Positions 15,301 through 64,000 of a stretch of 64,000 nucleotides of DNA are shown here, one piece after another. The notes under the pieces were generated by a model. It had not been told where the DNA came from. It searched no databases and saw only the letters and a program-made list of their open reading frames with translations. How positions within the stretch are numbered: position 1 is the first letter of the stretch; the number at the start of each line of letters is the position of its first letter. The DNA comes from an uncultured Burkholderiaceae bacterium. Lineage in GTDB: Bacteria > Pseudomonadota > Gammaproteobacteria > Burkholderiales > Burkholderiaceae_F. The position numbers were made by a program, and so were the translations under genes. The stretch is taken from the NCBI GenBank assembly GCA_964608115.1, contig CAZSOI010000040.1, positions 3,818 through 67,817 of the forward strand, written 5' to 3'.

Positions 15301-15304
15301 GCTC

Positions 15305-47487: not shown

Positions 47488-47745
47488 CTTTGTGTGCTGT
47501 TCGATGATGCAAGGATCGCGCGCCAGGCGCATTGTGCACGCCCAAACCCGAAGGCGTCGCATGCGGGAGAAGATCGCAGGGCTTTGGCGCCGCATTTGAT
47601 TGCATTGCCATTGCTGGCGTGCTCAGAGCTTGCCAATTGCTGGCATAAAAAAAGATGCGCTTTGTCCTCAAGTTCCAGCGTTTGGGGCCGTTGAGCAAGA
47701 AAGTAGCTGCTCAAAACCCTGCCCAAAACCGTCGCAGGCACTGCC

Positions 47746-48027
47746 ATGCCCGATTCTGGCCCGCTGCAAACTCACCAAGGCGCCGCAAATTGCGCCTCTT
47801 TTGAAGAAACTATCGGTGAAATACCGATAGTAAGCGCTAACATATCAGATAGTGTCTCAAACTGCCTTGCTGCCCCGCCGCGTGACGTCGGGCGCATGCT
47901 GGAGCGATACGGCTCGGCGCTTCCGCGTTACCTGGATGCGCAACGCCTGCGTGAAATTCGCAGCTCCCACGAGCGTTGGCCCATGTTGCGGCCCCTGGGC
48001 GCGGCCAACGACAGCCGCGGCTCGTGA
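47746..48027 (+). CDS. bcsR: BcsR / BcsP-N-terminal-like small cellulose biosynthesis protein (start uncertain)
   Basis: DVGRMLERYG....RY....R......ERWPML matches the BcsR-type D..L...F/Y..Y...RWPLL pattern; its stop overlaps the bcsE start. In-frame ATGs at 47746 and 47896. Confidence 0.6.
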   Translation: MPDSGPLQTHQGAANCASFEETIGEIPIVSANISDSVSNCLAAPPRDVGRMLERYGSALPRYLDAQRLREIRSSHERWPMLRPLGAANDSRGS

Positions 48028-49757
48028 TGAACGCCCCGAGCGTGACACAAAGCATGTTTCGACGGCCCCTGCAGTCCTCGCTGGGCGCGTTTTTGGGCCG
48101 TCACTTGACTCTTGCGCCGCTGCGCTCGGGTTGGGCCGCCACAGTGCCGATCGCGGATTTGCCCGGCGGCATTGGCGTGCTGCCCAGCGGCGAGCTGAGC
48201 CTTGTGCTTGCTCAAGACGAAGGCACTCGCGCGAACTTGCTGCGCTTGGTACTTGGCAGCGCATTGCCACGGCGACGCGTGACTTGGATCTGCGCCGCAG
48301 GCAAGGCACCACAGGGCTTAACCAGTGAGGTGCACAGCGCCGCGCTGCGCCGACAGCTCTTAGCCTTTACCTGGACGCAAGAGGCCGCAACCCAGGTGCG
48401 CCAACTCGGGGCCACGCAATTGCTGCGCGAACTGGAGCTGGCGGGCACGCGCCCGCACGATCTGCTGGTGCTTGACGCCCTGGATCCTTGGTTGGGACAA
48501 GTGCCCGAGGACTCGCCTTTGGAGGCCCTCGTCGAAGAGGCAATGGGCTGCCTGCAGCGCCTGGCAAAGGCCCACCGAGGCCCTGTGCTCGCGCTGGCTC
48601 CATCGCATATTCGCGGCCAAAGCCTGTTGCCGCTACTTGCGCACGTAGGCCCTGCCCAAATTAGCGTGCTCGATCTGGCCTCGATGCAACCGCATCTGAG
48701 CGTTCTGCGCTGGCGTTCGGCGCATGGCCTTCGCGCGGGCAAAGACGGCGTCTGCTTTGCGCTGCAGCTTGGCACAGATGGCCACTGGCACTGCCGCGAG
48801 CGAAAAAGCGCCGACATGCAGCCGCTGCTGGTCTCCAGCGACGCGCAAACGACGCATGTTCAGCGCAGTGTGATGCTCGACGCGTCGGCAACGCCCGCAA
48901 CCTGGCGCGTGCACGCCAATCTGGATTCGCTGTTAGAGGCGGCCCGCAACGCGGTGGCCGCCACACTCGTACTGGCGCATGAAACTCCGCAGGACGTCGT
49001 GGCTCTGGCCGACGCGGTGTACCGGTTGCGACGCGAGCACCCGCGTCTGCTCAAAATCGTCGTGCGCGAAACCGGCGCCACGTTGCGCAAAAACGGCGAA
49101 CTGGCGCTTTTGCGTGTCGGTGCCAATGCAGTGGTTGGACGCGAACATGGTTTTGGCCACCTGATGCAGGTCATCGATGAGGTCCGCGATCAGACCTACA
49201 GCAAGAGCTCGGAAGTCGAACCCGGACCGGCGCTGCAGGCCCTGGCACCTGACCCGGTTCAAGGCTACCTTCCGCTGCCGGCCTTTTGCAGCGCAGTCGA
49301 ACGAATGCTCGAGCGCACTGCTGGAACCGCGTTGGAGCACAGCCTCGTACACATACCGCTGCTGCCGCACGTAGCCCATCTTGACGCCCTGCTGGCGTGC
49401 CATTCCCGGCGTGACGGTGATGTTGTGACCGCGGATGCGCAGGGCCTGGTACTGTTTTTGTTTGGCTGCGCGCCCGAGGACGCCATGGCCGCGCTCGATG
49501 CCTTGTTCTCGATTCCTTGTTCGGAGCTCGCGCGCATGGTCCAGATTGAGGCCGACGGCACTTCGCAGCGTCAAGTACTTGCGCGGCTGCAACGCGCCGC
49601 CGATCAGGCGCCGCTGGATTTTTCCACGGTACTGCGCGGCATCTCGCCGACGCGACGACCCACCCCGGTTCAGGCGGTGGTGCTGCCCACGCGCAGCGAG
49701 GAGGCGGCGCGCAGCGTGCATGCGCACGTTCTGCCGCTTCGCGTCGCGACCGCATAA
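48024..49757 (+). CDS. bcsE: c-di-GMP-binding cellulose biosynthesis protein BcsE
   Basis: KIVVRE..ATLR...E..LL..GANAVV, and GIL-domain RDGD (RxGD) followed by LVLFLFGC; position in the bcs cluster. Confidence 0.88.
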   Translation: MMNAPSVTQSMFRRPLQSSLGAFLGRHLTLAPLRSGWAATVPIADLPGGIGVLPSGELSLVLAQDEGTRANLLRLVLGSALPRRRVTWICAAGKAPQGLTSEVHSAALRRQLLAFTWTQEAATQVRQLGATQLLRELELAGTRPHDLLVLDALDPWLGQVPEDSPLEALVEEAMGCLQRLAKAHRGPVLALAPSHIRGQSLLPLLAHVGPAQISVLDLASMQPHLSVLRWRSAHGLRAGKDGVCFALQLGTDGHWHCRERKSADMQPLLVSSDAQTTHVQRSVMLDASATPATWRVHANLDSLLEAARNAVAATLVLAHETPQDVVALADAVYRLRREHPRLLKIVVRETGATLRKNGELALLRVGANAVVGREHGFGHLMQVIDEVRDQTYSKSSEVEPGPALQALAPDPVQGYLPLPAFCSAVERMLERTAGTALEHSLVHIPLLPHVAHLDALLACHSRRDGDVVTADAQGLVLFLFGCAPEDAMAALDALFSIPCSELARMVQIEADGTSQRQVLARLQRAADQAPLDFSTVLRGISPTRRPTPVQAVVLPTRSEEAARSVHAHVLPLRVATA

Positions 49758-49771
49758 GGGGCACCAAAGCG

Positions 49772-49936
49772 ATGCTGCAAAGCTTTCTTCAATCCTTGTT
49801 GATCGGCGCATTGCTGGCCATGGCGCTTTTTACCGCCCGCGCCCTGCTGCGACGGGCAGCGACCCGGCGAGAGCATGTCGTGCGGGTGACAGCAGGGCTT
49901 CGCTGCGTGCGTCCAATGGACCTTGGCGAGCGCTGA
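49772..49936 (+). CDS. bcsF: BcsF-like small membrane protein (54 aa, absent from ORF track)
   Basis: Manual translation MLQSFLQSLLIGALLAMALFTARALLRRAATRREHVVRVTAGLRCVRPMDLGER*: single TM with a basic tail, between bcsE and bcsQ. Confidence 0.7.
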   Translation: MLQSFLQSLLIGALLAMALFTARALLRRAATRREHVVRVTAGLRCVRPMDLGER

Positions 49937-49938
49937 AA

Positions 49939-50709
49939 ATGCCTTGCATCGCCGTCGTTTCGCCGTGCGGAGGAAGCGGCCGTAGCACGCTGACCGCGTC
50001 GCTGGCCACGCTCACCGCGCGTAGCGGCGTCTGGGGCCTGGCGGTTGAATGTGATCCCCAAAACCTACTTGCGCTGCACTTTGGTGCCGAACAAGCCCCC
50101 GTCGAGGGTCTTGCCAGCCGCGCTGCGCGAGGCATGGTCTGGAACACGGCCGCGCTTGCGGCCAGCGACGGAACACTGATCCTGCCGTTTGGGACCATGG
50201 ATGCTCCGGCACTGGTGGACTGGGAACGTCGGCTCATTGTTGAACCCGACTGGTTGAGTGCCCGCCTCGATACGTTGGCGCGGCCCGCCGAGAGCTGGAC
50301 GTTCATAGATACGCCCCGCGCGCCCTCCGTATTAACGCGCCAAGCAGTGCGCGCGGCCAATGCGGTTCTCCTGGTGCTGCGTGCCGACGGAGCCTCGATG
50401 TCCCTGCTCGAATCGGCGCTCACAATGCTGGACGACAAGCCCGTACTGGCGGTGGTCAACGCCTTCGACCCGGGCCGCGCGTTACAAAAGGACGTATTGG
50501 CGGTGTTCTATGAACGACTCGGCGAACGGCTCTCGCCCTACCCCGTGCACCGCGACGAGGTCATACCCGAAGCTTTTGCACGCCGCATGTCTCCCGAAGA
50601 CCACTCGGCCCATGCCCAGGTGATACACGACCTGCATGGGCTTTTGGGCTGGATTCAGCGACAATGCCGGCTTATGACGGAACCGCGAACCGGCAGTAAT
50701 GTTCTCTAA
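49939..50709 (+). CDS. bcsQ: MinD/ParA-like ATPase BcsQ
   Basis: AVVSPCGGSGRST, VECDPQNLLALHFG, LILPFG, HRDEVIPEA. True start is ATG 49939, not 49435. Confidence 0.9.
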   Translation: MPCIAVVSPCGGSGRSTLTASLATLTARSGVWGLAVECDPQNLLALHFGAEQAPVEGLASRAARGMVWNTAALAASDGTLILPFGTMDAPALVDWERRLIVEPDWLSARLDTLARPAESWTFIDTPRAPSVLTRQAVRAANAVLLVLRADGASMSLLESALTMLDDKPVLAVVNAFDPGRALQKDVLAVFYERLGERLSPYPVHRDEVIPEAFARRMSPEDHSAHAQVIHDLHGLLGWIQRQCRLMTEPRTGSNVL

Positions 50710-53122
50710 GCTGCTCGCTGCCGGCGCGCGGGCGCTGGAGGTCGAGCATCCAAAGCGCTGGCGCAGTTGGCTCTGGCGCCTGTTCATTCGACCGAAAACC
50801 ACGACGAGCTCGCGCACCGCGCGCGCCTTTGACGCCACCCTAGCATGGCTCGCACGAGCTTTGGAGGTGCGCCGGGCCCAGCCCGCCGATCGCTTGCGCG
50901 CAGCTCTGATCGCGACCGCGCGCTGGGCGTATGCGCACATCCCTTCCATCGACCACGACCGTTTTGGCAGGTGGTTGGAGGCAGCCGCCGATGCGCCGTG
51001 GCTGCAGCGTCTGCCCGTACGCCTGCTCGGAATCGCCATTTGTACAGCAGCGTTTTGGTTGGCGGTCACCACGCCGTTTAACTGGATCTCCCAGCTCGTT
51101 TTTGGCATGGCGCTGTGCCTGCTCGCGATCCAGATCCGCAACACCCCCGGCACGGTGCCAACGCTGATCCTAATGACGCTCGCGCTCGTTGCGTCCTGCC
51201 GCTACGGCTGGTGGCGCATCACCCAGTCGATGGACCTGGATCCCGGCTGGGAAAGTGTGCTGGGCTCGTGCCTGCTGGCCGCCGAGGTCTACGCCTGGCT
51301 GATCATGTTGCTTGGATTTTTGCAATGTGCCTGGCCGCTTAAGCGCCAGACCACGTCGCTACCCGAGCGTGTGGAGCGTTGGCCTCACGTCGACATTTTC
51401 ATTCCCACCTACAACGAACCCTTGGCCGTTATCCGGCCCACGGTGCTTGCGGCCAAAGGAATTGATTGGCCACCCGAGAAATTGCGCATCTACGTTCTCG
51501 ATGACGGGCGACGCGAACCGGTGCGGCAGTTTGCACTCGAAGCCGGGGTGGAGTACCTCACGCGACCCGACAACAAGTTTGCCAAGGCCGGCAATCTCAA
51601 TCACGCGCTAACCCAGACCAAAGGCGAATTTATCGCGATCTTCGACTGCGACCACCTGCCCGTGCGCTCGTTCTTGCAGACCTGCATGGGCTGGATGCTG
51701 CGCGATAAGCGATGCGCCATGATCCAGACGCCACACCATTTTTTCTCCCCCGACCCCTTTGAGCGCAACCTGGAGACGTTTCGCCGCATTCCCAACGAGG
51801 GCTCGCTTTTTTACGGACTCGTGCAAGATGGCAACGACTTTTGGAATGCGACGTTTTTCTGCGGCTCCTGCGCTGTGCTGCGACGCGCTCCGCTGCTTGA
51901 GGTCGGTGGCATTGCCGTGGAGAGCGTAACCGAAGATGCGCACACGGCCTTGAAGCTGCACCGGCATGGCTATACCACCGCCTACCTGAACATGACGCAG
52001 GCCGCGGGTCTGGCTACCGAAAGTCTGGCAGCGCACGTCGGGCAGCGCATCCGTTGGGCCCGGGGAATGGCACAGATTTTTCGGCTCGATAACCCGCTTT
52101 TGGGTCGCGGACTGAGCTGGATGCAGCGCCTTTGCTACAGCAACTCGATGCTGCATTTTTTTTACGGCATTCCGCGCCTCGTCTTTTTGACCGCACCACT
52201 TGCCTACCTGTACTTTCAGCTGCACATCATCCGTTCCTCAGCCACGATCTTCGCGCTGTATTTGCTGCCGCACTTGGTGCTCCCGCACATCACGACCGCA
52301 CGCATGCAAGGGGCCTACCGCCATTCGTTCTGGGCCGAAGTCTACGAAACGGTGCTGGCCTGGTACATCACGCTGCCGACAACGATCGCCTTTGTGAACC
52401 CGCACAAGGGCAAATTCAATGTCACGGCCAAGGGCGAATTGGTGCAACGCACGCACTTTGACTGGCGCATCTCGCGGCCGTACTTTGGCTTGGTGCTGCT
52501 CAATGGCATCGGCCTTCTCATTGGGCTAATACGGCTTGTGTCCTGGAACCGGTTCGAAGCCGGCACCGTCGTGCTCAACCTGCTGTGGACCACGTTTAAC
52601 CTGCTCATGCTCGGTGCGGCCATCGGCGTAGCACATGAACGACGCCAAGTGCGCGTCTTTCATCGCGTTGTCGCACGTCTGCCCGTGAGCCTGTTGCTGC
52701 CAAACGGACATACGCAACGCTGTTACACCAACGACTACTCGCTCAATGGCTTGGGACTGGAGCTTGCCGAGGAGCTTGCGCTGGAGCGCGGAACGACGCT
52801 GCAGGTAACGATGGAGTCGGGTAACGTCGAGCATGCGTTTACCGCGCGCGTCACAGCCCAGCGGGGCAATTACATGGGTGTGCAGTTCGTTAACATGACG
52901 CTGCGACAGCAAGAGCAGCTCATCCAGTGCACATTTGGCCGCGCCGATGCCTGGTCGCGCTGGCAAGAACAATATGCAAGTGACCTGCCATTGCGAGGGC
53001 TCTGGGAGATTGCCACCCTTGGCCTGCGTGGCTACGCCCAACTAGTGCGTTGGGCGCTGCTCGAAGCCCGCCGCTATCTCGCCCCCTGGGGACCGCGCGC
53101 CGCGGCACCTGTGGAATCTTAA
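50699..53122 (+). CDS. bcsA: Cellulose synthase catalytic subunit
   Basis: PTYNE, DDG, KAGNLN, FDCDH, QTPH, TEDAHT, QRIRW, FNVTAKG; PilZ RVFHR and DYSLNG intact. Confidence 0.98.
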   Translation: MFSKLLAAGARALEVEHPKRWRSWLWRLFIRPKTTTSSRTARAFDATLAWLARALEVRRAQPADRLRAALIATARWAYAHIPSIDHDRFGRWLEAAADAPWLQRLPVRLLGIAICTAAFWLAVTTPFNWISQLVFGMALCLLAIQIRNTPGTVPTLILMTLALVASCRYGWWRITQSMDLDPGWESVLGSCLLAAEVYAWLIMLLGFLQCAWPLKRQTTSLPERVERWPHVDIFIPTYNEPLAVIRPTVLAAKGIDWPPEKLRIYVLDDGRREPVRQFALEAGVEYLTRPDNKFAKAGNLNHALTQTKGEFIAIFDCDHLPVRSFLQTCMGWMLRDKRCAMIQTPHHFFSPDPFERNLETFRRIPNEGSLFYGLVQDGNDFWNATFFCGSCAVLRRAPLLEVGGIAVESVTEDAHTALKLHRHGYTTAYLNMTQAAGLATESLAAHVGQRIRWARGMAQIFRLDNPLLGRGLSWMQRLCYSNSMLHFFYGIPRLVFLTAPLAYLYFQLHIIRSSATIFALYLLPHLVLPHITTARMQGAYRHSFWAEVYETVLAWYITLPTTIAFVNPHKGKFNVTAKGELVQRTHFDWRISRPYFGLVLLNGIGLLIGLIRLVSWNRFEAGTVVLNLLWTTFNLLMLGAAIGVAHERRQVRVFHRVVARLPVSLLLPNGHTQRCYTNDYSLNGLGLELAEELALERGTTLQVTMESGNVEHAFTARVTAQRGNYMGVQFVNMTLRQQEQLIQCTFGRADAWSRWQEQYASDLPLRGLWEIATLGLRGYAQLVRWALLEARRYLAPWGPRAAAPVES

Positions 53123-53236
53123 TCTCGAGCAAGAGTACGATCCGCACCGCGCCGATCGTTGCGGCGCCGCTTCACCACAGCCGGTATTGCGCGTAACGCT
53201 TATCGCGGCTCAAACAAGGGCCGCAGCACCGTCACA

Positions 53237-54811
53237 ATGGGCGCCTGGAGCCTTTATTTTCTTGCCAAGCTGGGCCTGTACTACGCGCACCGCATCGAGC
53301 TGCAGTGGCTGGCCAATTTCGCTTTCGCCGTGGCGCTGGCCCTGCCGCTGCAGCGCACCGCTGCCAGGCGCATACGCACGCTGCTGGCGATCCCGGCCGC
53401 AATCGCGCTGCTATACGACGAGCTGCACCTTCCGCCCTGGACACGGCTCATTGAAGATGCGGCCGCACTTGCCAACTTCCGCGCAGACTACCTGCTCGAG
53501 CTAGCCTCGCGGGCCCATTTGCCGCTATTTCTCGCGGCCCTGGCGTTGATGGCGCTTGCCTATGTGCTGCTTCGCCATCGTTTGCGATTTGCGACGTTCG
53601 TCTTTATTGGTCTCGTAATTGCGACCGTCGTTCCGCCTTCGGCACCCGCGCCGGCCGCGGTGCCCGCCCGGCCTTTCATACGTGCTGGCGAGCCGCAGGA
53701 GGCGCAAGCGCCACTTTCGCCCTTCGCGCTCGAGGAGGTGCTGCGAACCTTCTACGGCAGCGAACACGGTAAGAGCGTCAACTTTGCCCGCGTCGGCAGC
53801 GCGCGTTTTGACCTGGTTCTGCTGTCCGTGTGCTCGCTGTCCTTCGACGACCTAACCTACACCCATATGCGCGATGATCCGTTCTTATCGCGCTTTGATA
53901 TCGTCTTTGAGCAGTTCAACACGGCAGCCACCTATAGCGGCCCGGCGCTGCTGCGACTGCTGCATGGGACCTGTGGACAAACACCGCAGGGCGAGCTCTA
54001 CAGCGGCACAGCGGCCGAGGGCTGTTACTTGTTTCACAGCCTGGCCGCTGTGGGCTACCAGCCCGCCTTGCTGCTCAACCACGACGGGCAATACGACCAC
54101 TTCGCCCAACAGCTGCGCGAGCAAGGCGGCATGGGGATCGACCCGGAGGACAATCGTTCCTCTGCGGTCTTCATGACCGCTTTCGATGGCACGCCGTTGC
54201 GGCCCGACTTTGATGTGCTCTCGCGCTGGTGGTCGCGCCACCAGCACGACGAAGGCTACAACGCCCTGCTCTATAACACGATCAGTTTGCACGATGGCAA
54301 TCGCGTGGGCGGTCAGCTCATGCGCAGTAGCATCGATTCGTACACACCGCGCCTGCGGCACCTCTTTATCGATCTGGGTCGGTTCATGGACCTTATCGAG
54401 GCAAGCGGGAGGCCCACTGCGATTGTCCTCATTCCAGAGCATGGTGCCGCGCTGCGCGCCGACGCGAACCAAATCGCAGGAGTGCGCGAGCTGCCAACGC
54501 GTGCCATCACAAATGTTCCCGTAGCGGTCAAATTGGTCGGATTTCCGCATTTGCGGCATGCGGCCTCGCAACCGCTGGTGGTCCAAAGGCCGTCGAGCTA
54601 CCTTGCTCTTACGGCGCTTATCGCCGGACTCACCCAACTTGGCCCGAACGAGGCAACTCCCTCGGCTGTGCAAGCATTGCTGGCCGCCTTACCTTCCACC
54701 CAGTGGGTGGCCGAAAACGAGGGTACGGTATTGCTGCAGCGTGCCAGCCGAAGCTACCTGCGCTCACCCGGCGGGGAGTGGACCGATTTTTACCCTATGA
54801 GCGCACCGTGA
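53237..54811 (+). CDS. bcsG: Cellulose phosphoethanolamine transferase
   Basis: MGAWSLYFLAKLGL, VCSLSFDDL, TYSGPA, LYNTISLHDGNR, IPEHGAAL, NVPVAVK. Confidence 0.93.
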   Translation: MGAWSLYFLAKLGLYYAHRIELQWLANFAFAVALALPLQRTAARRIRTLLAIPAAIALLYDELHLPPWTRLIEDAAALANFRADYLLELASRAHLPLFLAALALMALAYVLLRHRLRFATFVFIGLVIATVVPPSAPAPAAVPARPFIRAGEPQEAQAPLSPFALEEVLRTFYGSEHGKSVNFARVGSARFDLVLLSVCSLSFDDLTYTHMRDDPFLSRFDIVFEQFNTAATYSGPALLRLLHGTCGQTPQGELYSGTAAEGCYLFHSLAAVGYQPALLLNHDGQYDHFAQQLREQGGMGIDPEDNRSSAVFMTAFDGTPLRPDFDVLSRWWSRHQHDEGYNALLYNTISLHDGNRVGGQLMRSSIDSYTPRLRHLFIDLGRFMDLIEASGRPTAIVLIPEHGAALRADANQIAGVRELPTRAITNVPVAVKLVGFPHLRHAASQPLVVQRPSSYLALTALIAGLTQLGPNEATPSAVQALLAALPSTQWVAENEGTVLLQRASRSYLRSPGGEWTDFYPMSAP

Positions 54812-54926
54812 GTGCAGTTTTGCTGCAGTTGCTTTTTTCTAGGTGTCGTGACAGATTGCGACCGGCCGCGCCGCAGAAGGCGTCTCCGACCAGTGTCCAC
54901 TCGTCTTTTCTTTTTATGGTAGCCCC

Positions 54927-55853
54927 ATGACTGTTTCTGCTGCACGACTTAACGACCGCTACGGCCTGCTGGGCCAGGTCGAATTCCGCGATGCACCCGA
55001 TGGGCTGATTTTTGCCGATGTGCAAAACGATTTGGCGCAGGCCACGCTATGTCTGCAAGGGGCGCACCTTACGACCTGGCGGCCGCGCTCGCAGCAAGTC
55101 CCTGTGATCTGGATCTCCGCGGCGGCACAGTACGCAGCGCGCAAATCCATCCGCGGCGGCATTCCACTGTGCTGGCCCTGGTTCGGGCCGCACGGTTCCC
55201 ACAGCCATTTACCGAGCCACGGCTTTGTACGCACCATGATTTGGGAGATGCGAAATTGTCAGCGCATGGGTGGTGGCGAGACGCAGCTCACGCTGGAGCT
55301 AAGCGACAACGAGCACACGCGCGCCCTGTGGCCACATCATTTTCACCTCCAATTGCAGCTCACGATCGGCGTATCGCTCAGCGTGGAGCTGATTACCTCC
55401 AACACCGGCATCGCGGATTTTGAGGTCGGGGAGGCGCTACACACGTATTTTCAGGTTAGCGACATCGAGGCAGTTCGCATACTCGGGCTCGATGGCGCCG
55501 AATTCCTCGACAAGGTCAATGGCGGCCGCAGGGCGCGGCAAGAAGGCGCCGTGCGGTTTCGGGGCGAGGTCGACCGGGTCTACGTCAATAGCGTGGCCGA
55601 CTGCGCGATCGAGGATGCGGAGCTGCGCCGGCGCATACACATTTCCAAGTCCGGCAGTCGCTCCACCGTCATCTGGACTCCATGGGAACAAAAAGCCAGG
55701 CAAATGGGGGACCTGGGACAAGGCTCCAAGGACCAGGGCGGATGGCGAGAGATGGTTTGCGTGGAAAGTGGCAACGCGCTTGAAAACGCGGTCCGCGTGG
55801 CACCAGGCGCGGAGCATCGCCTAAACGCTTTGTATCGAGTCGAGGACTTCTGA
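54927..55853 (+). CDS. D-hexose-6-phosphate mutarotase (YeaD / aldose 1-epimerase family)
   Basis: QGAH, IRGGIPLCWPWFG, HGFVR, ALHTYF, EVDRVY, MVCVESGN. Confidence 0.92.
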   Translation: MTVSAARLNDRYGLLGQVEFRDAPDGLIFADVQNDLAQATLCLQGAHLTTWRPRSQQVPVIWISAAAQYAARKSIRGGIPLCWPWFGPHGSHSHLPSHGFVRTMIWEMRNCQRMGGGETQLTLELSDNEHTRALWPHHFHLQLQLTIGVSLSVELITSNTGIADFEVGEALHTYFQVSDIEAVRILGLDGAEFLDKVNGGRRARQEGAVRFRGEVDRVYVNSVADCAIEDAELRRRIHISKSGSRSTVIWTPWEQKARQMGDLGQGSKDQGGWREMVCVESGNALENAVRVAPGAEHRLNALYRVEDF

Positions 55854-56165
55854 GCTCGTCGCTTTCACGTTTTGGCGCCAATTCGCGCTCGCGTTAGCGC
55901 AGTGCCGGCAAGAAGCAACGCGCGTTTGGCGCAAGGCTTTGTGCGAGCCGTCCTTTCGCGGTCGATCCGTCCGTTCGATGCTGCCAAAGCCGCCTGTGGC
56001 GCCATGCCGCAGCGAGCGCATCAGCTGCCGTCGGCAAACGCGACAATTACGGGCCTTTTTCGCTTTTTTCCACAAATCGCGTAGGCGCACTCTTGGCCAA
56101 ACTTCTTTGATGCGAAAACGCTACATCGCGATTGCCGGCGCCGATCCCACCGAAGAAATCGTGCC

Positions 56166-57497
56166 ATGAATTCTTTGCCCCGCCCCTCCGACTTCACCAA
56201 GCAGCGCAGCCTTGCTTCAGGCAACGACGATATCGCCCAGGCACTCCTAAAAAGCGATCTGATCGCCTTCGCACTGGTCGACTGCGGCAACATCGTTGCG
56301 GCCTCGCCCCTATTGCGCGAATTGCTTGGCGGCACAGCGCCCGGTCAACACATCGATGGTCGCAGCCTGCTTTCCATCGTTGCCGACGTCGATGCAGCCG
56401 GTGTGGCCGAATTTTGCCGCACCACGCTTGCCTCGAGCTCGCGCGCCGAACTTCGCTGTCATCTCCAACGCGCCGATGCGACGCACCTGCCCGTGCTGCT
56501 CAGTGCCGTAGCCGTCGGGCCACAAGACACGCGCAAGTTACTCATCTTGGTGACCGATATCTCGCCTTGGGTCGGGGATATGGCGGCCAACGACTCGGTT
56601 GCAAGTTTTGCGGCCTTTGACCGGATCACGAATTTTCCCACGCGCGCACTGCTTCTTGATCGCATGAAGATCGCCCTTGCAGCCGCGAGGCGATACCGCC
56701 GCCGCGCGGCAATCTTGCGCATCGAATTAGACCGGTTCAAAGCGCTACTGCAATCGCTCTCGAGTGAGGCCGCTGATGAAGTTCAGTCTACTGTGGCCGA
56801 GACCCTGCGAAACTGCGTGCGCGACTGCGACACGACCGCGCGTCTAGGAATTAGCGAGTTCGTTGTACTGCTGCCCGAATTCGGGCAGCGCGAGGACGCG
56901 GGCATTACCGCGGCGCGTATCGTTGAGGCGGTCGAAGCTCTTTTTGCGCACAACGAGCTGCGCTTTCGGGTGACGGCCCACATCGGCGTGGCGCTTTATC
57001 CGACCGACGGCACGAACTCCGAGCGCCTGCTGCAGGTCAGCGAGTCGGCGATGCACAAGGCACAATGCAGCCGCGACGGCGGATTTTCGCTCGCGCAAGC
57101 AACGAGCGCCGAGCTCACTGCGATCAAGCCGATTGAATTTGAGCAAAAATTCCAACTCGGAATCCCCGAGATTGATGCCGAGCATCGCGATCTTGTCGGG
57201 CGCATGAACGCACTTGCGGACGATCTGGCAGGCGGCGGCGATCCGAAGACCTTGGAATACGACCTGCGGGCGATGATTGAGATGCTGCGCGCACACTTTA
57301 CGACCGAGGTCAGTTTGCTGGGACAAGGAAGGCAAGAGGGAGGCAGCGAGCTCAGAATGCGCAACTTGCGCTTTCTCGAAGAGCTGCACTGCATCTTGTT
57401 ACACGTGAATTCGCAAAGTATCGCTGTGGCCATACGGCACCTGTACGACTGGCTCATACCCCATCTGCAGCAGGTCGATCAGACGAAGATCTCTTAG
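56166..57497 (+). CDS. PAS - degenerate GGDEF - degenerate hemerythrin protein
   Basis: PAS/PAC ending VTDIS; GGDEF scaffold with GISEF at 56847-56861 and RDCD I-site; C-terminal GIPEIDAEH...HFTTE...HLQQVD hemerythrin pattern. Confidence 0.85.
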   Translation: MNSLPRPSDFTKQRSLASGNDDIAQALLKSDLIAFALVDCGNIVAASPLLRELLGGTAPGQHIDGRSLLSIVADVDAAGVAEFCRTTLASSSRAELRCHLQRADATHLPVLLSAVAVGPQDTRKLLILVTDISPWVGDMAANDSVASFAAFDRITNFPTRALLLDRMKIALAAARRYRRRAAILRIELDRFKALLQSLSSEAADEVQSTVAETLRNCVRDCDTTARLGISEFVVLLPEFGQREDAGITAARIVEAVEALFAHNELRFRVTAHIGVALYPTDGTNSERLLQVSESAMHKAQCSRDGGFSLAQATSAELTAIKPIEFEQKFQLGIPEIDAEHRDLVGRMNALADDLAGGGDPKTLEYDLRAMIEMLRAHFTTEVSLLGQGRQEGGSELRMRNLRFLEELHCILLHVNSQSIAVAIRHLYDWLIPHLQQVDQTKIS

Positions 57498-57553
57498 CGC
57501 GGCTGCGCGGCCTTCCCATTGGCCGGTCCCGGCGAGCACTTCGGCCCAAGCAC

Positions 57554-60500
57554 TCAGAACAAGGAGATGGGAACCACCGGGTGCGGCGGGAACGCCGGCG
57601 CGCCGCTTTGCGGCTCTAACCAATAGCGCAGGTAGATCATCAGCTGATTAGGCGCGTAATAGGCCGAGCGGTCGATGTTAAGCCAAGCTCCGAGACTCCA
57701 GTGGGCCGTGGGACGGTACTCGATGTCGCCACGAATGCTGCCCGCCGGACCGCCGCCGGTTCCGGTCCCGGCGGTATATACGGGGTTACCTGCCTGAGCC
57801 TGCAGGCTCGCATCGGTCGGGTAGTACGGCGCGGTTTGCACGTACGTCCAGGCCCACGACGGCACAGCGCGCAGGTCGTAGGAAAGCGCTCCTCGCCGAC
57901 CTTGTATCTCGAGAGGAACGCCCAGGGACACGAAACGCTGCGGGCTGTAGTAGCCACCTTGTCCGAAGGTGTAGAAGTCCTGATCGTACTGGTAGTGCCA
58001 GATGCTGAGCACCCCGCCTGCGCTGAACCGAAAATCGGAGCGGTGAATCCAGTCACGATCGATAACGCTGCGCCACTCCACATTGGGATTGGAGAGCACA
58101 TTGCGTCCCGTGACCACACCCATCGACAGGCTGCTCGAAAAGCTCCAGCCGCGCGCCAAATCCCGACCAACGCGAAGCGTCAGCGCGGTGTCTGTCACAC
58201 CACCCCAAAGCGCTCCGGTTACCGGATCAGCGGCTCCCGCGTAAGAGAGCAAACTGGCGGTTACAACGCGCCGCGATAGCTCCGCGCTCACGTCCGAGTC
58301 GTTCCAGGTTGCGCTTTCGCGCCAAGCCCCGACGAGGTTGGGAACCTTAAAGCCGGCGCCAACGACGCCCACGTCAAACCGCCGTTCATCAGCGCGCCAG
58401 CCAACCTCGGCGGAAATGCCCTTGGCCTGCTCGGAAACCGGTTCGGCCAGGCCCGCCGGTGCCAGCGCCAGGACCTTGCCAAACTGCGACGAGTACGCGA
58501 ATTGCGCTGGCAAAGTGCCCGCGCTGGCACGCACCGCGTCGACCTGTCCGAACCAGTGCCCGTCGTAACCGCCCGGCCAAAGTACCAGTAGCGGGATCTC
58601 CGTGCCACGCAAGGTCGAAAGGCCGTCGGTTGCAGTGCGCGAGTACTGCAACCAAGCCGTATCAACTTGAGGTTGACGCCGCGCCTGAATCACCGCGAGC
58701 TCGCGCTGCGCCTTGGCTTGCACGCTGTCTTCCGGGAGATTTTGTACAACCGGTGCCGATGGGGTGTTGGCCAGCAGCGACGGGCTCGGCCCCAACAGGG
58801 GAATGGGCGACTCGGCAGCAGCCTCGGAGGCTGCGCCGGCCACCACGCCCAGGTATCCGACTGCGGCCGCGTACTGGCGGTCACGCTCGGCCTGGCGTGC
58901 GGCTTCGAGCAGCACTTGCTGGTCCTGCGGGTGCGCTCTGAGCAGTTCGGCCATCCACTCATGCGCGGTGCTGCGATCGTTGCCCATAAGGCCCAGCGCC
59001 TCGATATGCAGCTCGACGTCTTCGCGCGGCAGCAAATCGTGCATTCGCTGCAAATCCTCGTGCAGTGCCGCCGCATTGTGCTGAGCGTGATGCATGCGCG
59101 CACGCAGCAGCGCCAACTGCGCCTGGGTTTGCGCATCGAGCGGCTCCTTGCCCGCCATCTGCTCAATGAGCGCCTGAGCAAGGTCCATGCGTCCCGCATC
59201 GATCATTGCCTCGGCAAGGCCGCGTTGCTCCTCGGGGCCAAGGGATCCTTGCTCGATCGCGAGCCGGTCGATAAGCGCGCGCGCTCCACTTAAGTCATCG
59301 GCCGACAAATCCGCTCGAGCCACACGCAACAAGCGCGCCGGATCGTTGCCGGCCTGGGCCAGCGCTTCGCCGCGCCAGAAGGCATCTTGCTGTGTATCGG
59401 AGGTGGCGCGCGCGCTGCGCGCTCGTCGCAACGCGCCCTCAAAACGCAAATGTTGAACCAGCGCGCGCATGCCAGCCGACTGCTGTGCGGGGGCAATTGC
59501 CTCGACCGTCGCAAGGGCCACATCATCGCGGCCACTGGCCGCCGCAACCAGCGCCGCCGCGTAGTGCATCTCGGCATCTTGCGGGGCCAAGGCCTCGCCC
59601 TGCTGCATCACCTGTTGCGCTAAGCCTGGCAGCTGCAGACGCAAGTACACACGTGCCAAGTCATAGCGCAGCCAGGGATCGCGCGGCAGGAGCTCAACGC
59701 CGTGCTCCAAAAGGCGAAGCTGCACATCCGGGTGTTCGGCGGCCGCAAGGCTGATCGCGTCGCGCAGGGCCGTAGGCTCCAGAACCTGCACGGGTTCGAG
59801 ATTTGCCGTTAACGGCAACCGCTGCGCCTGATCGAGTGCTTCTTCTACGCGCCCTTGTTCTAGCCGCAGCGACAGTAAGCCGCGCCAGGCACGTGCATCG
59901 GCTGCGTCGCGGCGCAACAGTTCCCGGTACAGTGCCTCGGCCTCCTTCTCGCGCTTTTGCGCCACGCGCAAGGCGGCGAGCAGATGAATCGCCTCCACCT
60001 GATCGGGCTGGGTATCGCGCACCGACTCCACCAGATGCGCGGCCCCTTCCAAATCGCCGGCGTCGCGCAAAGCGCGCGCCTTGGCAAGCGCGCTCCAGTA
60101 GCGCGCCGTCTTGGTCAGATCCAGCCAGCGCACACGCAGATCCGGCTGCGCTTTTTCCAACTCACTGGCCTGCTCAAAGTACGCGAGCGCTTCTTCGTTG
60201 CGCCCCTGGCGCAAGCGCAGCAGCCCTAAAGTCCCGATTGTTTCTGCATCCTCCGGGCGCAATTGCAAGCTGCGCAACAACTCGCTTTCTGCCTCGGCCA
60301 TCTCGCCGGTTTCGAGCGAGCGTTCGGCTGCAAGACGAAGCTGCACTGCGGGATCGTTTTCCAACTGCTGCGCGGCTATCCTCTGAGCCTCAACACGCGC
60401 AACCTCCTCACGCATCTCGCTGTCGCTGGGATATCGTGCCAGGAATAGTCGCCGCTGAGTTTGCGCCTGCTCGTCGTTGCCAAGCGCCAAGAGGGCATGG

Positions 60501-61258
60501 CGCCAAGCGCTGGCGATTCGTTGCGGATCCACATCGTGGCCAAGCGCCAAGTCGGCAAAGCCACGCAACGCCTCTTCGCGTGTATCGGCGTGCAACGCCA
60601 GCAGCTCATACAGCGTCAGTCGGTCGCGCGGATTTGGGTCTTCTTCGATGCGCTCTTGCAGCAGCTCGCGCATCGTCTGCCAGCCGCCCGGTGTGCTGCC
60701 AAGCACCAGCGCAAATTCATTGGCCAAGTCTCCCGGAGGGCGGCCGTCAGGAAACAGCGAGCGCGCCAAGCTCAGCGCACGCGGCTGGTTGCCGCCGCGC
60801 ACAAAGACTCGCAGTTGTGCCAGGCGCGTGCGCTCCCGTGTGTAGACACGCACCAAGTCCGCAAACTCTCGCACCAAGGCTCCAGCCTCGGGGCTGCGAG
60901 CAAGTTGCGCCGCCAGTTTACGGGCCTGCTCGATGTGCCCGGCACGCAGCTCGAGCTCACCCAGCAAAAACAGTGCGCGCGGCTGCTCGGGCTGCACCGC
61001 CAGAAGCTTTCGTAGTACTTCGCGTTCGGCATCGGGGTGTTCGAGCGCCTGCCAAAGCCGTGCGCTGCGCAGCAATTCGGCAATTGCTTCCTGCTGCGGC
61101 AAGGACGTCGGGCTCCGCGCAGCTTCCGCCTGCGCCAAGACCGTCAACAGTGGCGCGGTAAGCGTCGCCGCCAATAAGGCCGTCCAGGGGCGCAAGCGCG
61201 CGAGCGCGCGGCACGCCGCGCCCGGCTTCAGCGCGAAGGCGCGGAGCACTGCTGCCAT
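57554..61258 (-). CDS. bcsC: Cellulose export outer-membrane TPR/porin protein
   Basis: Signal peptide, many TPR-like repeats, DPWLRYDLAR, C-terminal barrel with YTFGQGGYYSPQ and SLLSYAG. Confidence 0.95.
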   Translation of the reverse strand: MAAVLRAFALKPGAACRALARLRPWTALLAATLTAPLLTVLAQAEAARSPTSLPQQEAIAELLRSARLWQALEHPDAEREVLRKLLAVQPEQPRALFLLGELELRAGHIEQARKLAAQLARSPEAGALVREFADLVRVYTRERTRLAQLRVFVRGGNQPRALSLARSLFPDGRPPGDLANEFALVLGSTPGGWQTMRELLQERIEEDPNPRDRLTLYELLALHADTREEALRGFADLALGHDVDPQRIASAWRHALLALGNDEQAQTQRRLFLARYPSDSEMREEVARVEAQRIAAQQLENDPAVQLRLAAERSLETGEMAEAESELLRSLQLRPEDAETIGTLGLLRLRQGRNEEALAYFEQASELEKAQPDLRVRWLDLTKTARYWSALAKARALRDAGDLEGAAHLVESVRDTQPDQVEAIHLLAALRVAQKREKEAEALYRELLRRDAADARAWRGLLSLRLEQGRVEEALDQAQRLPLTANLEPVQVLEPTALRDAISLAAAEHPDVQLRLLEHGVELLPRDPWLRYDLARVYLRLQLPGLAQQVMQQGEALAPQDAEMHYAAALVAAASGRDDVALATVEAIAPAQQSAGMRALVQHLRFEGALRRARSARATSDTQQDAFWRGEALAQAGNDPARLLRVARADLSADDLSGARALIDRLAIEQGSLGPEEQRGLAEAMIDAGRMDLAQALIEQMAGKEPLDAQTQAQLALLRARMHHAQHNAAALHEDLQRMHDLLPREDVELHIEALGLMGNDRSTAHEWMAELLRAHPQDQQVLLEAARQAERDRQYAAAVGYLGVVAGAASEAAAESPIPLLGPSPSLLANTPSAPVVQNLPEDSVQAKAQRELAVIQARRQPQVDTAWLQYSRTATDGLSTLRGTEIPLLVLWPGGYDGHWFGQVDAVRASAGTLPAQFAYSSQFGKVLALAPAGLAEPVSEQAKGISAEVGWRADERRFDVGVVGAGFKVPNLVGAWRESATWNDSDVSAELSRRVVTASLLSYAGAADPVTGALWGGVTDTALTLRVGRDLARGWSFSSSLSMGVVTGRNVLSNPNVEWRSVIDRDWIHRSDFRFSAGGVLSIWHYQYDQDFYTFGQGGYYSPQRFVSLGVPLEIQGRRGALSYDLRAVPSWAWTYVQTAPYYPTDASLQAQAGNPVYTAGTGTGGGPAGSIRGDIEYRPTAHWSLGAWLNIDRSAYYAPNQLMIYLRYWLEPQSGAPAFPPHPVVPISLF

Positions 61259-62454
61259 GCAGGCACCAAGCTGCCGTCAGCAGCAAAGGCAAAGCGTAGT
61301 TCATGCCAGCCAGTGGCAAATAACCGAAGCACCTGCTCGTAGTACGCGTCGGGTCGCACCGGATGGTTGCGCAGCCGCAGCTCCTGTGCGCGCAACGCCG
61401 AGGCGCGGTCAAGCGCGGTCAAAAACGGCAGCAGCGCCGCCGAAAATCCCGCGGGCCCTTCACCTTGGGCATTTCCATCCAACGCATCGATGGTCTCGGG
61501 CGGCGCCGCTTCGCGCTCTATGCGATCGGCCATGGGGGAAAAGTGCTCGAGCAGCGGTCCGCGCGCCGGGTCAAGTGCTGCGGTTAGACCTACCCAGAGG
61601 TACACGCGAATTGCGTCGTAGCCGCCGACTCGCTGCGCGGACCCAAGCTGCGCAGCTTCAAAGTGGCCGTGGCCGGATTCGGCTCCCGCGGCTTCGGGAT
61701 CAGCACGATAAAACGCCCAGTCGGGAGCAAAACCGCGGGGCGAGGATTCACGTAAAACTACGTGCGAGGTTTGCAGTAACTCCTGCCAGCGCACATCGCC
61801 ACTGCGCGTGGCAAACCAGCGCATCAGAAACGGCGGCATGTAGCTTGGGTTTAAGCGCCAGCGTCCGGGCTCCGGGGTAAAACCGCGCCGACCCGGCAGC
61901 AGCGTTCGACCCAGGCCCGGCAGTTGCGCTGTCTCCTCGCGCACGATGCGCTCGGCAAGCACAGAGGACAAGGCGAGGTAGCGCCGCTGCTGCCACAATC
62001 GACCGGCCTCCCCCAGGGTGTATGCGATCCACAGATCGGCGTCGGCCGCGGAATTCTCGTCGATCACACCCCAGCTACCGTCGTCGCGTCGCCCCCAAAG
62101 CCATGCGGGCAAGCGCATCGTCAGATCGCCCCCGGCCAGATTGTCCTCGGTCCAACGCAACAGCTGTTCAAAGCGCACCGCGTCGTTTGCCACCAAGGAA
62201 AAGAACAGGGCGTAGGCTTGCGCCTCTGAAACCGAGTGCGCACGCGCCGAAGCTGGATCGATCACGCGCGCACCCCTGCCCAGAAACTGGTCGGCAAATT
62301 CCGCCCACGCGGCCCAGGAGGTGCAGGGCGGGGCCGGCGCGTCAGGCAGCGTCGCCGCGGCGCTTGCCCATCGCGCCTGGCCGGCAGCTAAGGCCACAAG
62401 CGCCCCCGCACGCAGCAGCTGGCGCCGCATTTGCGCCTGCTGCCAAGCGCTCAC
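61228..62454 (-). CDS. bcsZ: GH8 endo-1,4-beta-glucanase
   Basis: SVSEAQAYALFF, LPAWLWG, NSAADADLW, YNP-like LNPSYMP, YDAIRVYLW, YYEQVL.LF. Start is GTG 62454 (overlaps the bcsB stop) or ATG 62430. Confidence 0.93.
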   Translation of the reverse strand: MSAWQQAQMRRQLLRAGALVALAAGQARWASAAATLPDAPAPPCTSWAAWAEFADQFLGRGARVIDPASARAHSVSEAQAYALFFSLVANDAVRFEQLLRWTEDNLAGGDLTMRLPAWLWGRRDDGSWGVIDENSAADADLWIAYTLGEAGRLWQQRRYLALSSVLAERIVREETAQLPGLGRTLLPGRRGFTPEPGRWRLNPSYMPPFLMRWFATRSGDVRWQELLQTSHVVLRESSPRGFAPDWAFYRADPEAAGAESGHGHFEAAQLGSAQRVGGYDAIRVYLWVGLTAALDPARGPLLEHFSPMADRIEREAAPPETIDALDGNAQGEGPAGFSAALLPFLTALDRASALRAQELRLRNHPVRPDAYYEQVLRLFATGWHELRFAFAADGSLVPAWQQCSAPSR

Positions 62455-64000
62455 GAACCGGCGGCCAGCCGCCGTGCCGCCATCCGTCGCAACGCGCCGA
62501 AGATTACGAGCGCAATAAACACGCCCAGCGCCAAGCCCAGCGCCACGAGCAAGATGGGGTGCGAGTGCAGCTGAAACCATAACCATCGCCACCAACTCAG
62601 GTGCCCGACGTAGTAGGTATCGCCGACACGAAAGGATTGCACTTGCTCATCGCGCAACAAAACGAGGTCGCCGCGCACATCGCGGACCTTGGACGCATCG
62701 ATCAAGGCCGTAGCAGCGCGCGGTAGCGTCGCCTCGTCCGTAGCGTTGAGCACAATGGCCGACCGGCCACTTGCCAAGGGCGACTCAAATCCTAAGATCG
62801 CCGCCAGCGGCCCCTTACTGGCGATCTCTGTCCAACCGTCTTTGGGCACCGCGTGCGGCAACGCACCGCTAAACCATTCCGCGCCCGCATCAGCGAGTTT
62901 GCCCAGCATCGAGCTCGCCCGCTGACCTGCATCGATGCGTGCAGGCAGTGTGTCCTTCCAAGTCTGCAGCAGCGGGGCATCCAATCCGCTTGCGATCAGC
63001 AGCACATCACGGTCGCCGGCCTGCTGCACATTGCTTGCCTTGAGCAATTCAAAGCGCGTTGCTGGCACACCGGTGGCCGCACCGAAGCTGCCCAGCACGG
63101 TGAGCATCGTTTCGACTTCCGCGGGTTTGGGCGTATCAGGAAGTATTACCGCCGTCTGGCCAAGGTCGGCGTACTTGGTAAACGGAAAACCGCTGTTGGC
63201 AAAAAACGCAAGGTTGGGCATCGCCGCGTAGTGCTCGATATGTGTGAGATCGAGCGTCGAATCCGGGTCGATCGCGGCCTGTGCCGCACCCAAGGTCGTG
63301 CGACAGTGTCCTTCATCCTGCGGTGGAATATCAAAGACGAACTGAAGCTGGTTGTTGGCGCCCAGCTGAAACGCCGGCACCGTCAGGCCCTGCGTGACCA
63401 AGGTGCCAGTGTCCTCAAGAAACGGCAGGTCCAGGTGACGCGAGGTGCCAACCTGGTCGGCGGCGCGCAGTGGAAAGGACTGGACGAACTCGTCATTGAT
63501 GCGAACCGACAAGTTGCCCTGACCGTTCTCGCGCGGGACGGTGTAGCGAAAGCGCAGCTCTACGGGCATTCCGCGCGCTTCCCAGGTGAAAATGTCGGCC
63601 GGCAAGCGCAAGTTAACGCGGATCGGATCGAGCGAGTGGCCCGTAACCTGCAGATCGCCCGAGCGCTCGACGAGCTCGCCGATGCGCACTCGTTGCCCCG
63701 TGCGCACCATGTTCGGAGCCTGGTAAGCGATGGATGCTTCGGGCAGGCGAACGGAACGTACCGTAACGCGCTCTCCGCTCAAGATCGCTTGACCCAACAC
63801 GAGAGCCTGTGCCGCCGTACGCAGCTGCTCGGCGTCGCGCCCGAGCACCAAGAGCAGCTTTACTGTCGGCTCGTCTGGACGCGTGATGACGGCCAGCGTG
63901 GGCTCCTGGACCTGTGGCAGCGCCAGGTTCGAGGGGCGCTCCTCGTTCGTCGCAAGTACCACCGCGTGCTGCGCGGGCAGGGTGTCGAAATACGAAGGGA
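62451..64000 (-). CDS. bcsB: Cellulose synthase regulatory subunit BcsB (5-prime end outside window)
   Basis: LRLPADIFTW, YRYT-like FRYT, AIDPDSTLD, MPNLAFFANSGFPFTKYADLGQT, YYVGHLSWW..LW and C-terminal TM. Confidence 0.95.
   Translation of the reverse strand, partial: PSYFDTLPAQHAVVLATNEERPSNLALPQVQEPTLAVITRPDEPTVKLLLVLGRDAEQLRTAAQALVLGQAILSGERVTVRSVRLPEASIAYQAPNMVRTGQRVRIGELVERSGDLQVTGHSLDPIRVNLRLPADIFTWEARGMPVELRFRYTVPRENGQGNLSVRINDEFVQSFPLRAADQVGTSRHLDLPFLEDTGTLVTQGLTVPAFQLGANNQLQFVFDIPPQDEGHCRTTLGAAQAAIDPDSTLDLTHIEHYAAMPNLAFFANSGFPFTKYADLGQTAVILPDTPKPAEVETMLTVLGSFGAATGVPATRFELLKASNVQQAGDRDVLLIASGLDAPLLQTWKDTLPARIDAGQRASSMLGKLADAGAEWFSGALPHAVPKDGWTEIASKGPLAAILGFESPLASGRSAIVLNATDEATLPRAATALIDASKVRDVRGDLVLLRDEQVQSFRVGDTYYVGHLSWWRWLWFQLHSHPILLVALGLALGVFIALVIFGALRRMAARRLAAGS

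Follow-up and report, generated by a model that had tools for sequence, protein, structure and literature searches.

P0001, a catalytically degenerate PAS-GGDEF-hemerythrin protein and possible c-di-GMP receptor encoded in a bacterial cellulose locus

P0001 is a protein of 443 amino acids (aa) encoded in a 64,000-nucleotide (nt) stretch of contig CAZSOI010000040.1 (termed here the window), from the metagenome-assembled genome of an uncultured Burkholderiales bacterium from peat. It has a PAS-like domain, a GGDEF domain with a degenerate signature and a hemerythrin-type four-helix bundle, in that order. Its catalytic motifs have drifted throughout its clade, and the residues of its cyclic di-GMP (c-di-GMP) binding I-site are invariant. 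The proposal is made, with about an even chance of being right, that P0001 is a soluble, catalytically dead descendant of PAS-GGDEF-hemerythrin cyclases that now serves as a c-di-GMP receptor or adaptor linked to the phosphoethanolamine (pEtN)-cellulose system.

Domain organization of P0001

An earlier reading of this DNA, made from the letters alone (the sequence-only reading), had described a three-domain open reading frame. This open reading frame is real, and all of the motifs quoted in that reading translate exactly where it had placed them. P0001 is a soluble protein. It has neither a signal peptide nor a membrane helix, and its first 23 residues are disordered.

The GGDEF domain is detected with Pfam (PF00990) at residues 149–302 (E = 4e-28) and covers profile positions 1–157 of 161. 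Matches to GGDEF domains in the PDB have E-values down to 6e-26 (phmmer), and Foldseek gives TM-scores by target of 0.8–0.86 with isolated GGDEF domains, which places the domain in the GGDEF superfamily. An AlphaFold2 (AF2) model built from 38 sequences (mean pLDDT 83, pTM 0.71) displays a PAS-type domain at positions 35–131, a complete GGDEF fold at ~150–310 and a four-helix bundle at 334–435.

The PAS region forms a five-stranded sheet with helices (pLDDT ~85 in the AF2 model) and by this fold belongs with the PAS domains. No Pfam PAS match is found for P0001 itself at E ≤ 0.1; PAS_9 matches occur in its orthologues (precomputed Pfam). The best PDB matches by Foldseek are PAS-GGDEF proteins, and two of these (5xgb and 8c05) align over >300 columns, encompassing PAS plus GGDEF.

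Loss of the catalytic site and conservation of the I-site

A GG(D/E)EF signature and a DxDxFKxxNDxxGHxxGD segment are both marks of an active diguanylate cyclase, and P0001 has neither. Conservation was assessed with 36 aligned orthologues (46%–85% identical), to which all counts out of 36 refer. In the GISEF sequence that replaces the signature, G228 is kept in 22/36, positions 229 and 230 are hypervariable with at least six residue types each, E231 is present in 30/36 and F232 in all. Leu takes the place of the guanine-binding Asn in 34/36, the Lys of the FK pair is variable, and the GH..GD segment is gone. Judged from this alignment, the catalytic site is destroyed throughout the P0001 clade.

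In contrast, the I-site is intact. The RxxD motif (RDCD, R219 to D222) has a spacing of exactly five residues from D222 to G228, the position expected of an I-site, and R219, D222, R226 and R251 are each conserved in 36/36 orthologues. R251 is taken here to be the third I-site arginine, R390 of PleD, from our own alignment. R175 and R176, at the end of helix alpha1, presumably stand at the secondary I-site arginine, R313 of PleD, according to our own alignment to PleD and WspR. In PleD itself the I-site consists of RxxD and R390, plus R313 from a partner domain (PMC7288161).

A model of P0001 with two c-di-GMP ligands (ESMFold2) gives a score of 0.60 in three concordant runs, compared with 0.29 for the best control (margin +0.31). 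The modelled ligand contacts are at residues 215–220, 222, 236–241, 244, 247–248 and 251, i.e. at the I-site.

The sequence-only reading had claimed an intact RxxD beside a lost signature, and had named orthologues with intact GGDEF and His ligands as the finding that would speak against it. The alignment bears out the claim: the signature is lost in 36/36 and R219/D222 are kept in 36/36. The contrary finding does not occur, as both GGDEF and the HxxxH pair of the bundle are lost in every aligned orthologue. A relaxed catalytic pocket together with a frozen allosteric pocket is what would be expected of an enzyme that has become a receptor.

The hemerythrin-type bundle and its metal site

The C-terminal region matches hemerythrin models slightly below their cut-offs: Pfam PF01814 at residues 332–439 with 23.3 bits (cut-off 25.3), and NCBIfam TIGR02481 with 47.5 (cut-off 51.75, E = 1.7e-12). 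The AF2 model shows the four helices of the bundle at 334–355, 360–385, 392–410 and 416–435. Both homology and fold thus assign the region to the hemerythrin type. A phmmer search with residues 306–443 against 1.8 billion representatives matched 505 of them at E ≤ 1e-3; single-domain bacteriohemerythrins of ~135 aa are numerous among these.

The canonical seven ligands of the di-iron site are H-HxxxE-HxxxH-HxxxxD, with three His on Fe1, two on Fe2, and O2 bound at Fe2 (PMC9388753). P0001 has five of the seven, located at H340, HFTTE (377–381) and HLQQVD (433–438). These are retained in the orthologues as follows: H340 in 35/36, H377 in 36/36, E381 in 35/36, H433 in 36/36, and D or E at 438 in 32/36. 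The sequence-only reading was correct that the HxxxH pair has degenerated to LRMRN with H, HxxxE and HxxxxD kept; both the translation and an alignment with the DcrH hemerythrin domain of known structure show this, the latter setting HKEIH of DcrH opposite LRMRN. Position 396 is variable, and N400 is present in 34/36.

The HxxxH pair belongs to Fe1. With this pair lost, the remaining set would therefore be the Fe2 ligands, both bridging carboxylates and one Fe1 His. On the basis of its ligand set, a canonical O2-binding di-iron site is excluded, and a mononuclear or weaker binuclear metal site is possible.

In the P0001 clade the loss of HxxxH is accompanied by gained clade-specific residues. 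These form a patch at positions 406–425, where E406, C409, I410 and L411 are found in 36/36 and H425 in 35/36; none of these five is found in the active paralogues. Two other conserved residues of the patch, Q417 (at least 90%) and the invariant S418, are common to the paralogues. The linker between the GGDEF domain and the bundle is also highly conserved. From helical periodicity C409 would be expected to point away from the former metal site, and for this reason the patch is read as a surface or interface and not as a new ligand set.

A more specific suggestion, and a rather doubtful one, is that the bundle is a sensor of a new type (with mononuclear or labile iron, or redox- or Cys-based) that gates c-di-GMP binding or output at the receptor. 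Secretion of cellulose or pEtN-cellulose would then need high c-di-GMP plus a particular O2, iron or redox state. If true, coincidence detection would take place at the effector and not at the cyclase or phosphodiesterase.

The genome that encodes P0001 has ten hemerythrin-domain matches besides P0001's own. One open reading frame (L051 911–2242, minus strand; G000:C178) encodes a 443-aa protein with an N-terminal hemerythrin, a coiled coil and a GGDEF domain of signature GGEEL, with the segment DVDHFKHFNDTYGH intact.

The P0001 clade, selection and origin

The P0001 clade comprises ~50 clusters from uncultured Burkholderiales, 38%–85% identical to P0001. A word-indexed search gives ~50 full-length clusters of 441–456 aa (46%–85% identity) with intact frames, and an exhaustive search adds two more divergent members, P0122 and P0126. 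The chain length is 441–448 aa in nearly all members. Pairwise dN/dS for closer pairs (dS 0.5–0.9) is 0.06–0.3 for each of the PAS, degenerate GGDEF and hemerythrin-type domains. All three domains are under purifying selection. No literature description of this family was found.

GGDEF proteins of ~440 aa with a C-terminal hemerythrin bundle make up dozens of 50%-identity clusters. When 30 such proteins from outside the clade were aligned, ~24 showed intact GGDEF, DxDxFKxxND and HxxxH. The sequence-only reading had stated that known hemerythrin diguanylate cyclases are active enzymes, typically with an N-terminal bundle. The characterised enzymes all have an N-terminal bundle (PMC9388753), but in these ~24 uncharacterised proteins with intact motifs the bundle is C-terminal. 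Among them are P0054, P0140, P0129, P0138 and P0142 (PAS/X-GGDEF-hemerythrin, ~440 aa, same domain order, 28%–33% identical), which serve as the outgroup. P0054-type outgroups keep GGDEF, DxDxFKxxND and HxxxH, unlike P0001, and the P0054 gene, the only one of the outgroup whose context was examined, is not in a bcs locus.

In a maximum-likelihood tree the degenerate proteins are monophyletic (100/100) with respect to the active outgroups of the same architecture. By this phylogeny, the source of the P0001 family is among active GGDEF proteins with C-terminal hemerythrin. Five or six other lineages of this architecture have lost GGDEF independently; all keep RxxD and most keep the equivalent of R251. 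Conversion of enzyme to receptor thus appears, from these alignments, to recur in this architecture. The independently degenerate lineages are represented by P0135, P0166, P0172, P0183, P0192 and P0202, and HxxxH is intact in all but P0192.

Linkage of the P0001 gene to bcs genes

The P0001 gene lies inside a bcs locus, as had been recognized in the sequence-only reading. With its bcsE and bcsG genes, this locus is of the E. coli type. It is located between bcsG with its adjoining aldose-epimerase gene and a convergent bcsC. Synteny was compared over 15 distinct loci that carry P0001 or an orthologue. At 11 of these the gene is linked to bcs: bcsG lies upstream with one gene in between, or immediately before it in L028, where the epimerase gene is missing. 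Wherever the contig reaches far enough, bcsE, a 54-aa open reading frame, bcsQ and bcsA precede bcsG in these 11 loci. Linkage spans 47%–85% identity and has persisted where genes were inserted or the epimerase was lost. Convergent bcsC-Z-B genes follow downstream at seven of the 11, sometimes beyond inserted genes; no bcsC was found within 10 kb in L022, and in three other bcs-linked loci the contig ends too early.

In the genus, BcsA and a P0001 orthologue were detected together in seven of 14 genomes, and neither was detected in the remaining seven, three of which are ≥96% complete. Most genomes in either group carry the epimerase. As the sole cause of the linkage, hitch-hiking with the aldose-epimerase gene was considered and rejected: L028 keeps bcsG followed by the gene without the epimerase, and congeners that lack bcs keep the epimerase but not the gene.

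In other genera of the family the bcs locus is a different one, bcsA-B-Z-G, and contains no P0001-type gene. One genome with this locus, G019 (locus L034; also G016 and G018), belongs to another genus of the family and is 99% complete. A search of the whole G019 genome gave no PF00990 GGDEF match, which prompts the question of what activates the cellulose synthase there.

The region upstream of the P0001 gene

The gap between the aldose-epimerase gene and the P0001 gene is 313 nt in the window and 146–575 nt in orthologous loci. It contains a conserved element, CTTGGCCAAACTT, with a T-rich box (...TTTTCC) ~25–30 nt upstream of it. With up to three mismatches allowed, the element occurs at positions -66 to -114 in 10 of the 15 loci, including L024, which has no bcs genes, and a poorer match is found at -166 in L027. 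From the alignment of the upstream regions, the P0001 gene is probably controlled by a promoter or regulator site of its own.

A consensus of the element, (C)TTGGCCAAACT(T/C), is seen in the window and in the upstream regions of L013–L018, L024, L028 and L029. Its AAACTT part resembles the -35 box of promoters of the extracytoplasmic function (ECF)/RpoE type; no -10 element was identified. The possibility that CTTGGCCAAACTT is a site for a shared regulator was dismissed, as it occurs only once in the window. A search for Rfam or known RNAs or riboswitches in the 313-nt gap and the locus gave one sub-threshold chance match only, and a scan for sigma-70 promoters and terminators at 54700–57700 gave nothing above the shuffled expectation.

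Proposed role and alternative explanations

Cellulose secretion of the E. coli type is thought to read c-di-GMP by means of two modules, BcsA-PilZ and BcsE. P0001 may be a third. In the proposed mechanism, intercalated dimeric c-di-GMP would bind the I-site of P0001 and may cross-link two degenerate GGDEF domains through the Arg-rich end of helix alpha1, with a resulting change in conformation or oligomeric state. The PAS domain and the remodelled bundle would modulate this response. As its output, P0001 would act through protein-protein effects on assembly, activity or pEtN modification in the BcsEFQAG/BZC machine.

The sequence-only reading had likewise proposed a receptor or scaffold for the cellulose machine alongside BcsE and PilZ. 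The clade-wide RxxD, the RDGD motif of BcsE, the PilZ domain of BcsA and the 11 bcs-linked loci favor this; the four members without bcs and the lack of a supported contact with BcsQ/BcsE do not, and the proposal stands in part.

Several observations weigh against a role in cellulose secretion or against c-di-GMP binding. Four of the 15 loci (L024, L019, L030 and L032) have no bcs genes nearby, so that either a P0001-type protein works without Bcs or the bcs-less copies are orphaned. L024 consists of a decarboxylase, the epimerase, the P0001 orthologue, a 399-aa gene and PGDH, which is the arrangement of L027 minus both bcs blocks. In L032 the orthologue adjoins the NAD-epimerase gene that flanks bcsE elsewhere. 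L030 shows no bcs genes on its 6-kb contig, and BcsG was not found in the genome of L019. RpoB identities (RpoB was recovered from six of the 14 genus genomes) show that co-occurrence in the genus is mostly one split, i.e. one or two evolutionary events, and for this reason it is weak as independent evidence. A modelled complex of P0001 (20–443) with BcsQ plus residues 279–593 of BcsE, its REC*-GGDEF* half (asterisks mark degenerate domains), has a median score of 0.01, which gives no support and is no evidence against. The 313-nt gap and the conserved element suggest a transcription unit of its own rather than membership in an operon. The active ancestors have RxxD as well, and its presence alone is thus, on the alignments, simply inherited, and the docking tool states no verdict for small molecules. 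In addition, only peat metagenomes have yielded this organism; in sequence databases just two peat DNA metagenomes carry the P0001 sequence and no RNA run does.

One alternative is that P0001 is a c-di-GMP effector with a target other than cellulose, a general regulator or adaptor whose position in bcs is an accident of a conserved neighborhood (decarboxylase, NAD-epimerase, aldose-epimerase, P0001 gene, 400-aa gene and PGDH). This is unlikely. L024 keeps the neighborhood without both bcs blocks, L027 has the same 401-aa gene plus PGDH after bcsB, the orthologue in L032 lies beside the NAD-epimerase without bcs, the L019 genome has no BcsG match, the conserved upstream element is the gene's own and is present in L024 as well, and no contact with BcsQ/BcsE is modelled. 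An accident of neighborhood does not, however, account well for bcsG lying immediately or one gene upstream in 11 of 15 loci across such a range of identity, nor for congeners that lack bcs and retain the epimerase but no P0001-type gene. Members without bcs also tend to be on long branches (P0122, 1.04; P0126, 1.45; median 0.14). Degenerate GGDEF proteins such as CsrD and GdpS act without binding c-di-GMP, and P0001 might similarly be a non-binding sensor or partner, in which the I-site residues are structural and which either forms heterodimers that modulate active PAS-GGDEF(-hemerythrin) cyclases or acts in a CsrD/GdpS-like manner; this too is unlikely, and slightly more so. The CsrD and GdpS models are among the weak NCBIfam matches of P0001, the genome offers possible partners (~23 GGDEF matches and the canonical hemerythrin-GGDEF cyclase), and the invariant, surface-like patch and conserved linker would suit such a role. 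On the other hand, the three primary I-site positions and R175/R176 are strictly invariant while their catalytic neighbors drift, as is expected of ligand binding; the five or six independently degenerate lineages keep RxxD, most with the R251 equivalent; and the docking model, although the tool gives no verdict on it, puts the ligand at the I-site, +0.31 over controls.

P0001 is very unlikely to have retained an enzymatic activity, whether that of a diguanylate cyclase of non-canonical type, of some other nucleotide cyclase or of a GTPase. The GGDEF fold is complete, and E231-F232 and R226 are conserved, but many different residues stand in place of the second Gly and the catalytic Asp/Glu, Asn has become Leu, Lys is variable and GH..GD is lost, and a retained active site is rejected because such variability is incompatible with conservation of one. 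It is scarcely conceivable that P0001 is a decaying, pseudogene-like copy without function. Catalytic and metal ligands have been lost and the hemerythrin hidden Markov model scores fall below curated cut-offs, yet the frame is intact in ~50 clusters with a conserved length, dN/dS is low in every domain and invariant residues have been gained; decay was ruled out by the intact frames and the dN/dS values. The receptor or adaptor tied to pEtN-cellulose remains the reading that is proposed here, at the even chance given above.

Comparison with known systems

In Caulobacter PopA (REC-REC-GGDEF*) the GGDEF fold is complete, the active site is dead and the I-site works, and the protein serves as a c-di-GMP-dependent adaptor; compared with P0001, its input is by receiver domains and its output in cell-cycle proteolysis, without a metal-type domain or an exopolysaccharide context. 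In exopolysaccharide systems, PelD and BcsE are receptors of the degenerate-GGDEF, I-site type (PMC7439463). PelD, of the Pseudomonas aeruginosa Pel system, resembles P0001 in having a degenerate GGDEF domain with RxxD and in being encoded in a locus for a synthase-dependent exopolysaccharide; its RxxD binds c-di-GMP and activates secretion (PMC7439463). PelD differs in being membrane-anchored, with a GAF domain and a GGDEF* domain without the P-loop and helix alpha1, whereas P0001 is a soluble protein whose GGDEF fold is complete and flanked by PAS and bundle, and a PDB sequence search with P0001 gave no match to PelD. BcsE (GIL/REC*-GGDEF*) is, like P0001, a protein of the bcs locus with an RxxD I-site and is the second module beside BcsA-PilZ (PMC7439463). 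It differs in architecture, and no BcsE family match was found for P0001. BcsE is present in the same locus, so P0001 would be an addition to it and not a replacement.

Hemerythrin-type bundles as sensors are known from Vibrio cholerae Bhr-DGC, DcrH and Bhr-HD-GYP, with fusion to a c-di-GMP domain as in P0001 (PMC9388753). The characterised sensors have all seven ligands, a redox-active di-iron site and an active output enzyme, and the bundle is N-terminal in both of the c-di-GMP enzymes (PMC9388753). In P0001 the bundle is C-terminal with five of seven ligands, and the GGDEF domain is predicted to be inactive. In principle P0001 is closest to PelD, BcsE and PopA, and by architecture and sequence comparison it is outside of their families.

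A third I-site protein of the cellulose machine, fused to a PAS domain and a modified metal bundle, would, if true, mean that signals can be integrated at the receptor itself. P0001 would also make a clear evolutionary case of an enzyme that became a receptor, with drifting catalytic positions, a frozen allosteric pocket and intact enzymes as the closest outgroups. It is a tractable soluble protein for asking how the I-site of a GGDEF domain can come to serve as an output switch, and it bears on the fate of the hemerythrin fold after one iron site is lost and on how oxygen or iron cues in peat soils reach exopolysaccharide production.

Other features of the window

The coordinates of the features are collected in Table 1. 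The 54-aa open reading frame between bcsE and bcsQ could be BcsF-like, by its shape and position, or BcsR. An open reading frame of 436 aa (46384–47694, plus strand) was rejected as a gene, as it is an antisense artefact of the NAD-epimerase gene on the minus strand.

Table 1. Features of the P0001 gene and the surrounding cellulose locus (positions in the window)
Feature	Position	Strand	Basis and remarks
P0001 coding sequence, PAS-GGDEF*-hemerythrin* protein, 443 aa	56166..57497	+	Open reading frame list, translation; start kept in orthologues
PAS-like N-terminal domain, ~residues 24–135	56235..56570	+	AF2, Foldseek, PAS_9 in orthologues
Degenerate GGDEF domain, ~residues 149–305	56610..57080	+	PF00990; PDB GGDEF matches by phmmer
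RRYRRR arginine cluster, end of helix alpha1	56688..56705	+	Alignment; R175/R176 invariant
Metal/guanine-binding segment ELDRFKALLQSLSSEAAD, residues 187–204, degenerate	56724..56777	+	Translation; canonical DxDxFKxxNDxxGHxxGD
I-site RxxD, R219-D-C-D222 (RDCD)	56820..56831	+	Invariant in 36/36 orthologues and both paralogues; in modelled c-di-GMP contact
Signature GISEF, residues 228–232, degenerate	56847..56861	+	Translation, orthologue alignment
R251	56916..56918	+	36/36 orthologues; in modelled c-di-GMP interface
Hemerythrin-type four-helix bundle, ~residues 326–438	57141..57479	+	Pfam, NCBIfam, AF2, DcrH-Hr alignment
LRMRN, residues 396–400, replacing HxxxH	57351..57365	+	Translation; opposite HKEIH of DcrH-Hr
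Clade-specific conserved patch, residues 406–425	57381..57440	+	Orthologue alignment
Conserved element CTTGGCCAAACTT, ~73 nt before ATG	56092..56104	+	Upstream-region alignment
NAD-dependent epimerase/dehydratase	46474-47595	-	PF01370, E 4e-57; flanks bcsE in most clade loci
bcsE (true start may be downstream), RDGD I-site-like motif	47976..49757	+	PF10995, E 5e-88; translation
54-aa open reading frame, N-terminal hydrophobic helix plus basic tail	49772..49936	+	Sequence; no Pfam match; also in L027–L029
bcsQ	49939..50709	+	Pfam PF06564
bcsA (GT2 plus PilZ)	50699..53122	+	Pfam
bcsG (pEtN transferase family)	53159..54811	+	Pfam PF11658, E 8e-166
Aldose 1-epimerase family gene, usual upstream neighbor	54927..55853	+	PF01263, E 3e-43; also in bcs-less congeners
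bcsC, convergent	57554..61258	-	Pfam BCSC_C plus TPR; 57 nt between stop codons
bcsZ (GH8)	61228..62595	-	Pfam
bcsB, runs off window end	62451..64000	-	Pfam PF03170

At 47976–64000 the genes bcsE/Q/A/G and bcsB-Z-C form two convergent units and not one bcsAB operon, and this arrangement is kept in all complete loci of the clade. A small gene of 143–149 aa is often present just downstream of the orthologue (L022 5728–6174, L027 11356–11802, L028 11361–11810 on the minus strand, and L029 11526–11957); it has only a weak DUF4431 match and is absent from the window. In L029 an open reading frame at 14876–17632 (minus strand), situated between the orthologue and bcsC, encodes a PAS-GAF-GGDEF-EAL protein of 918 aa, which may be a local source or sink of c-di-GMP.

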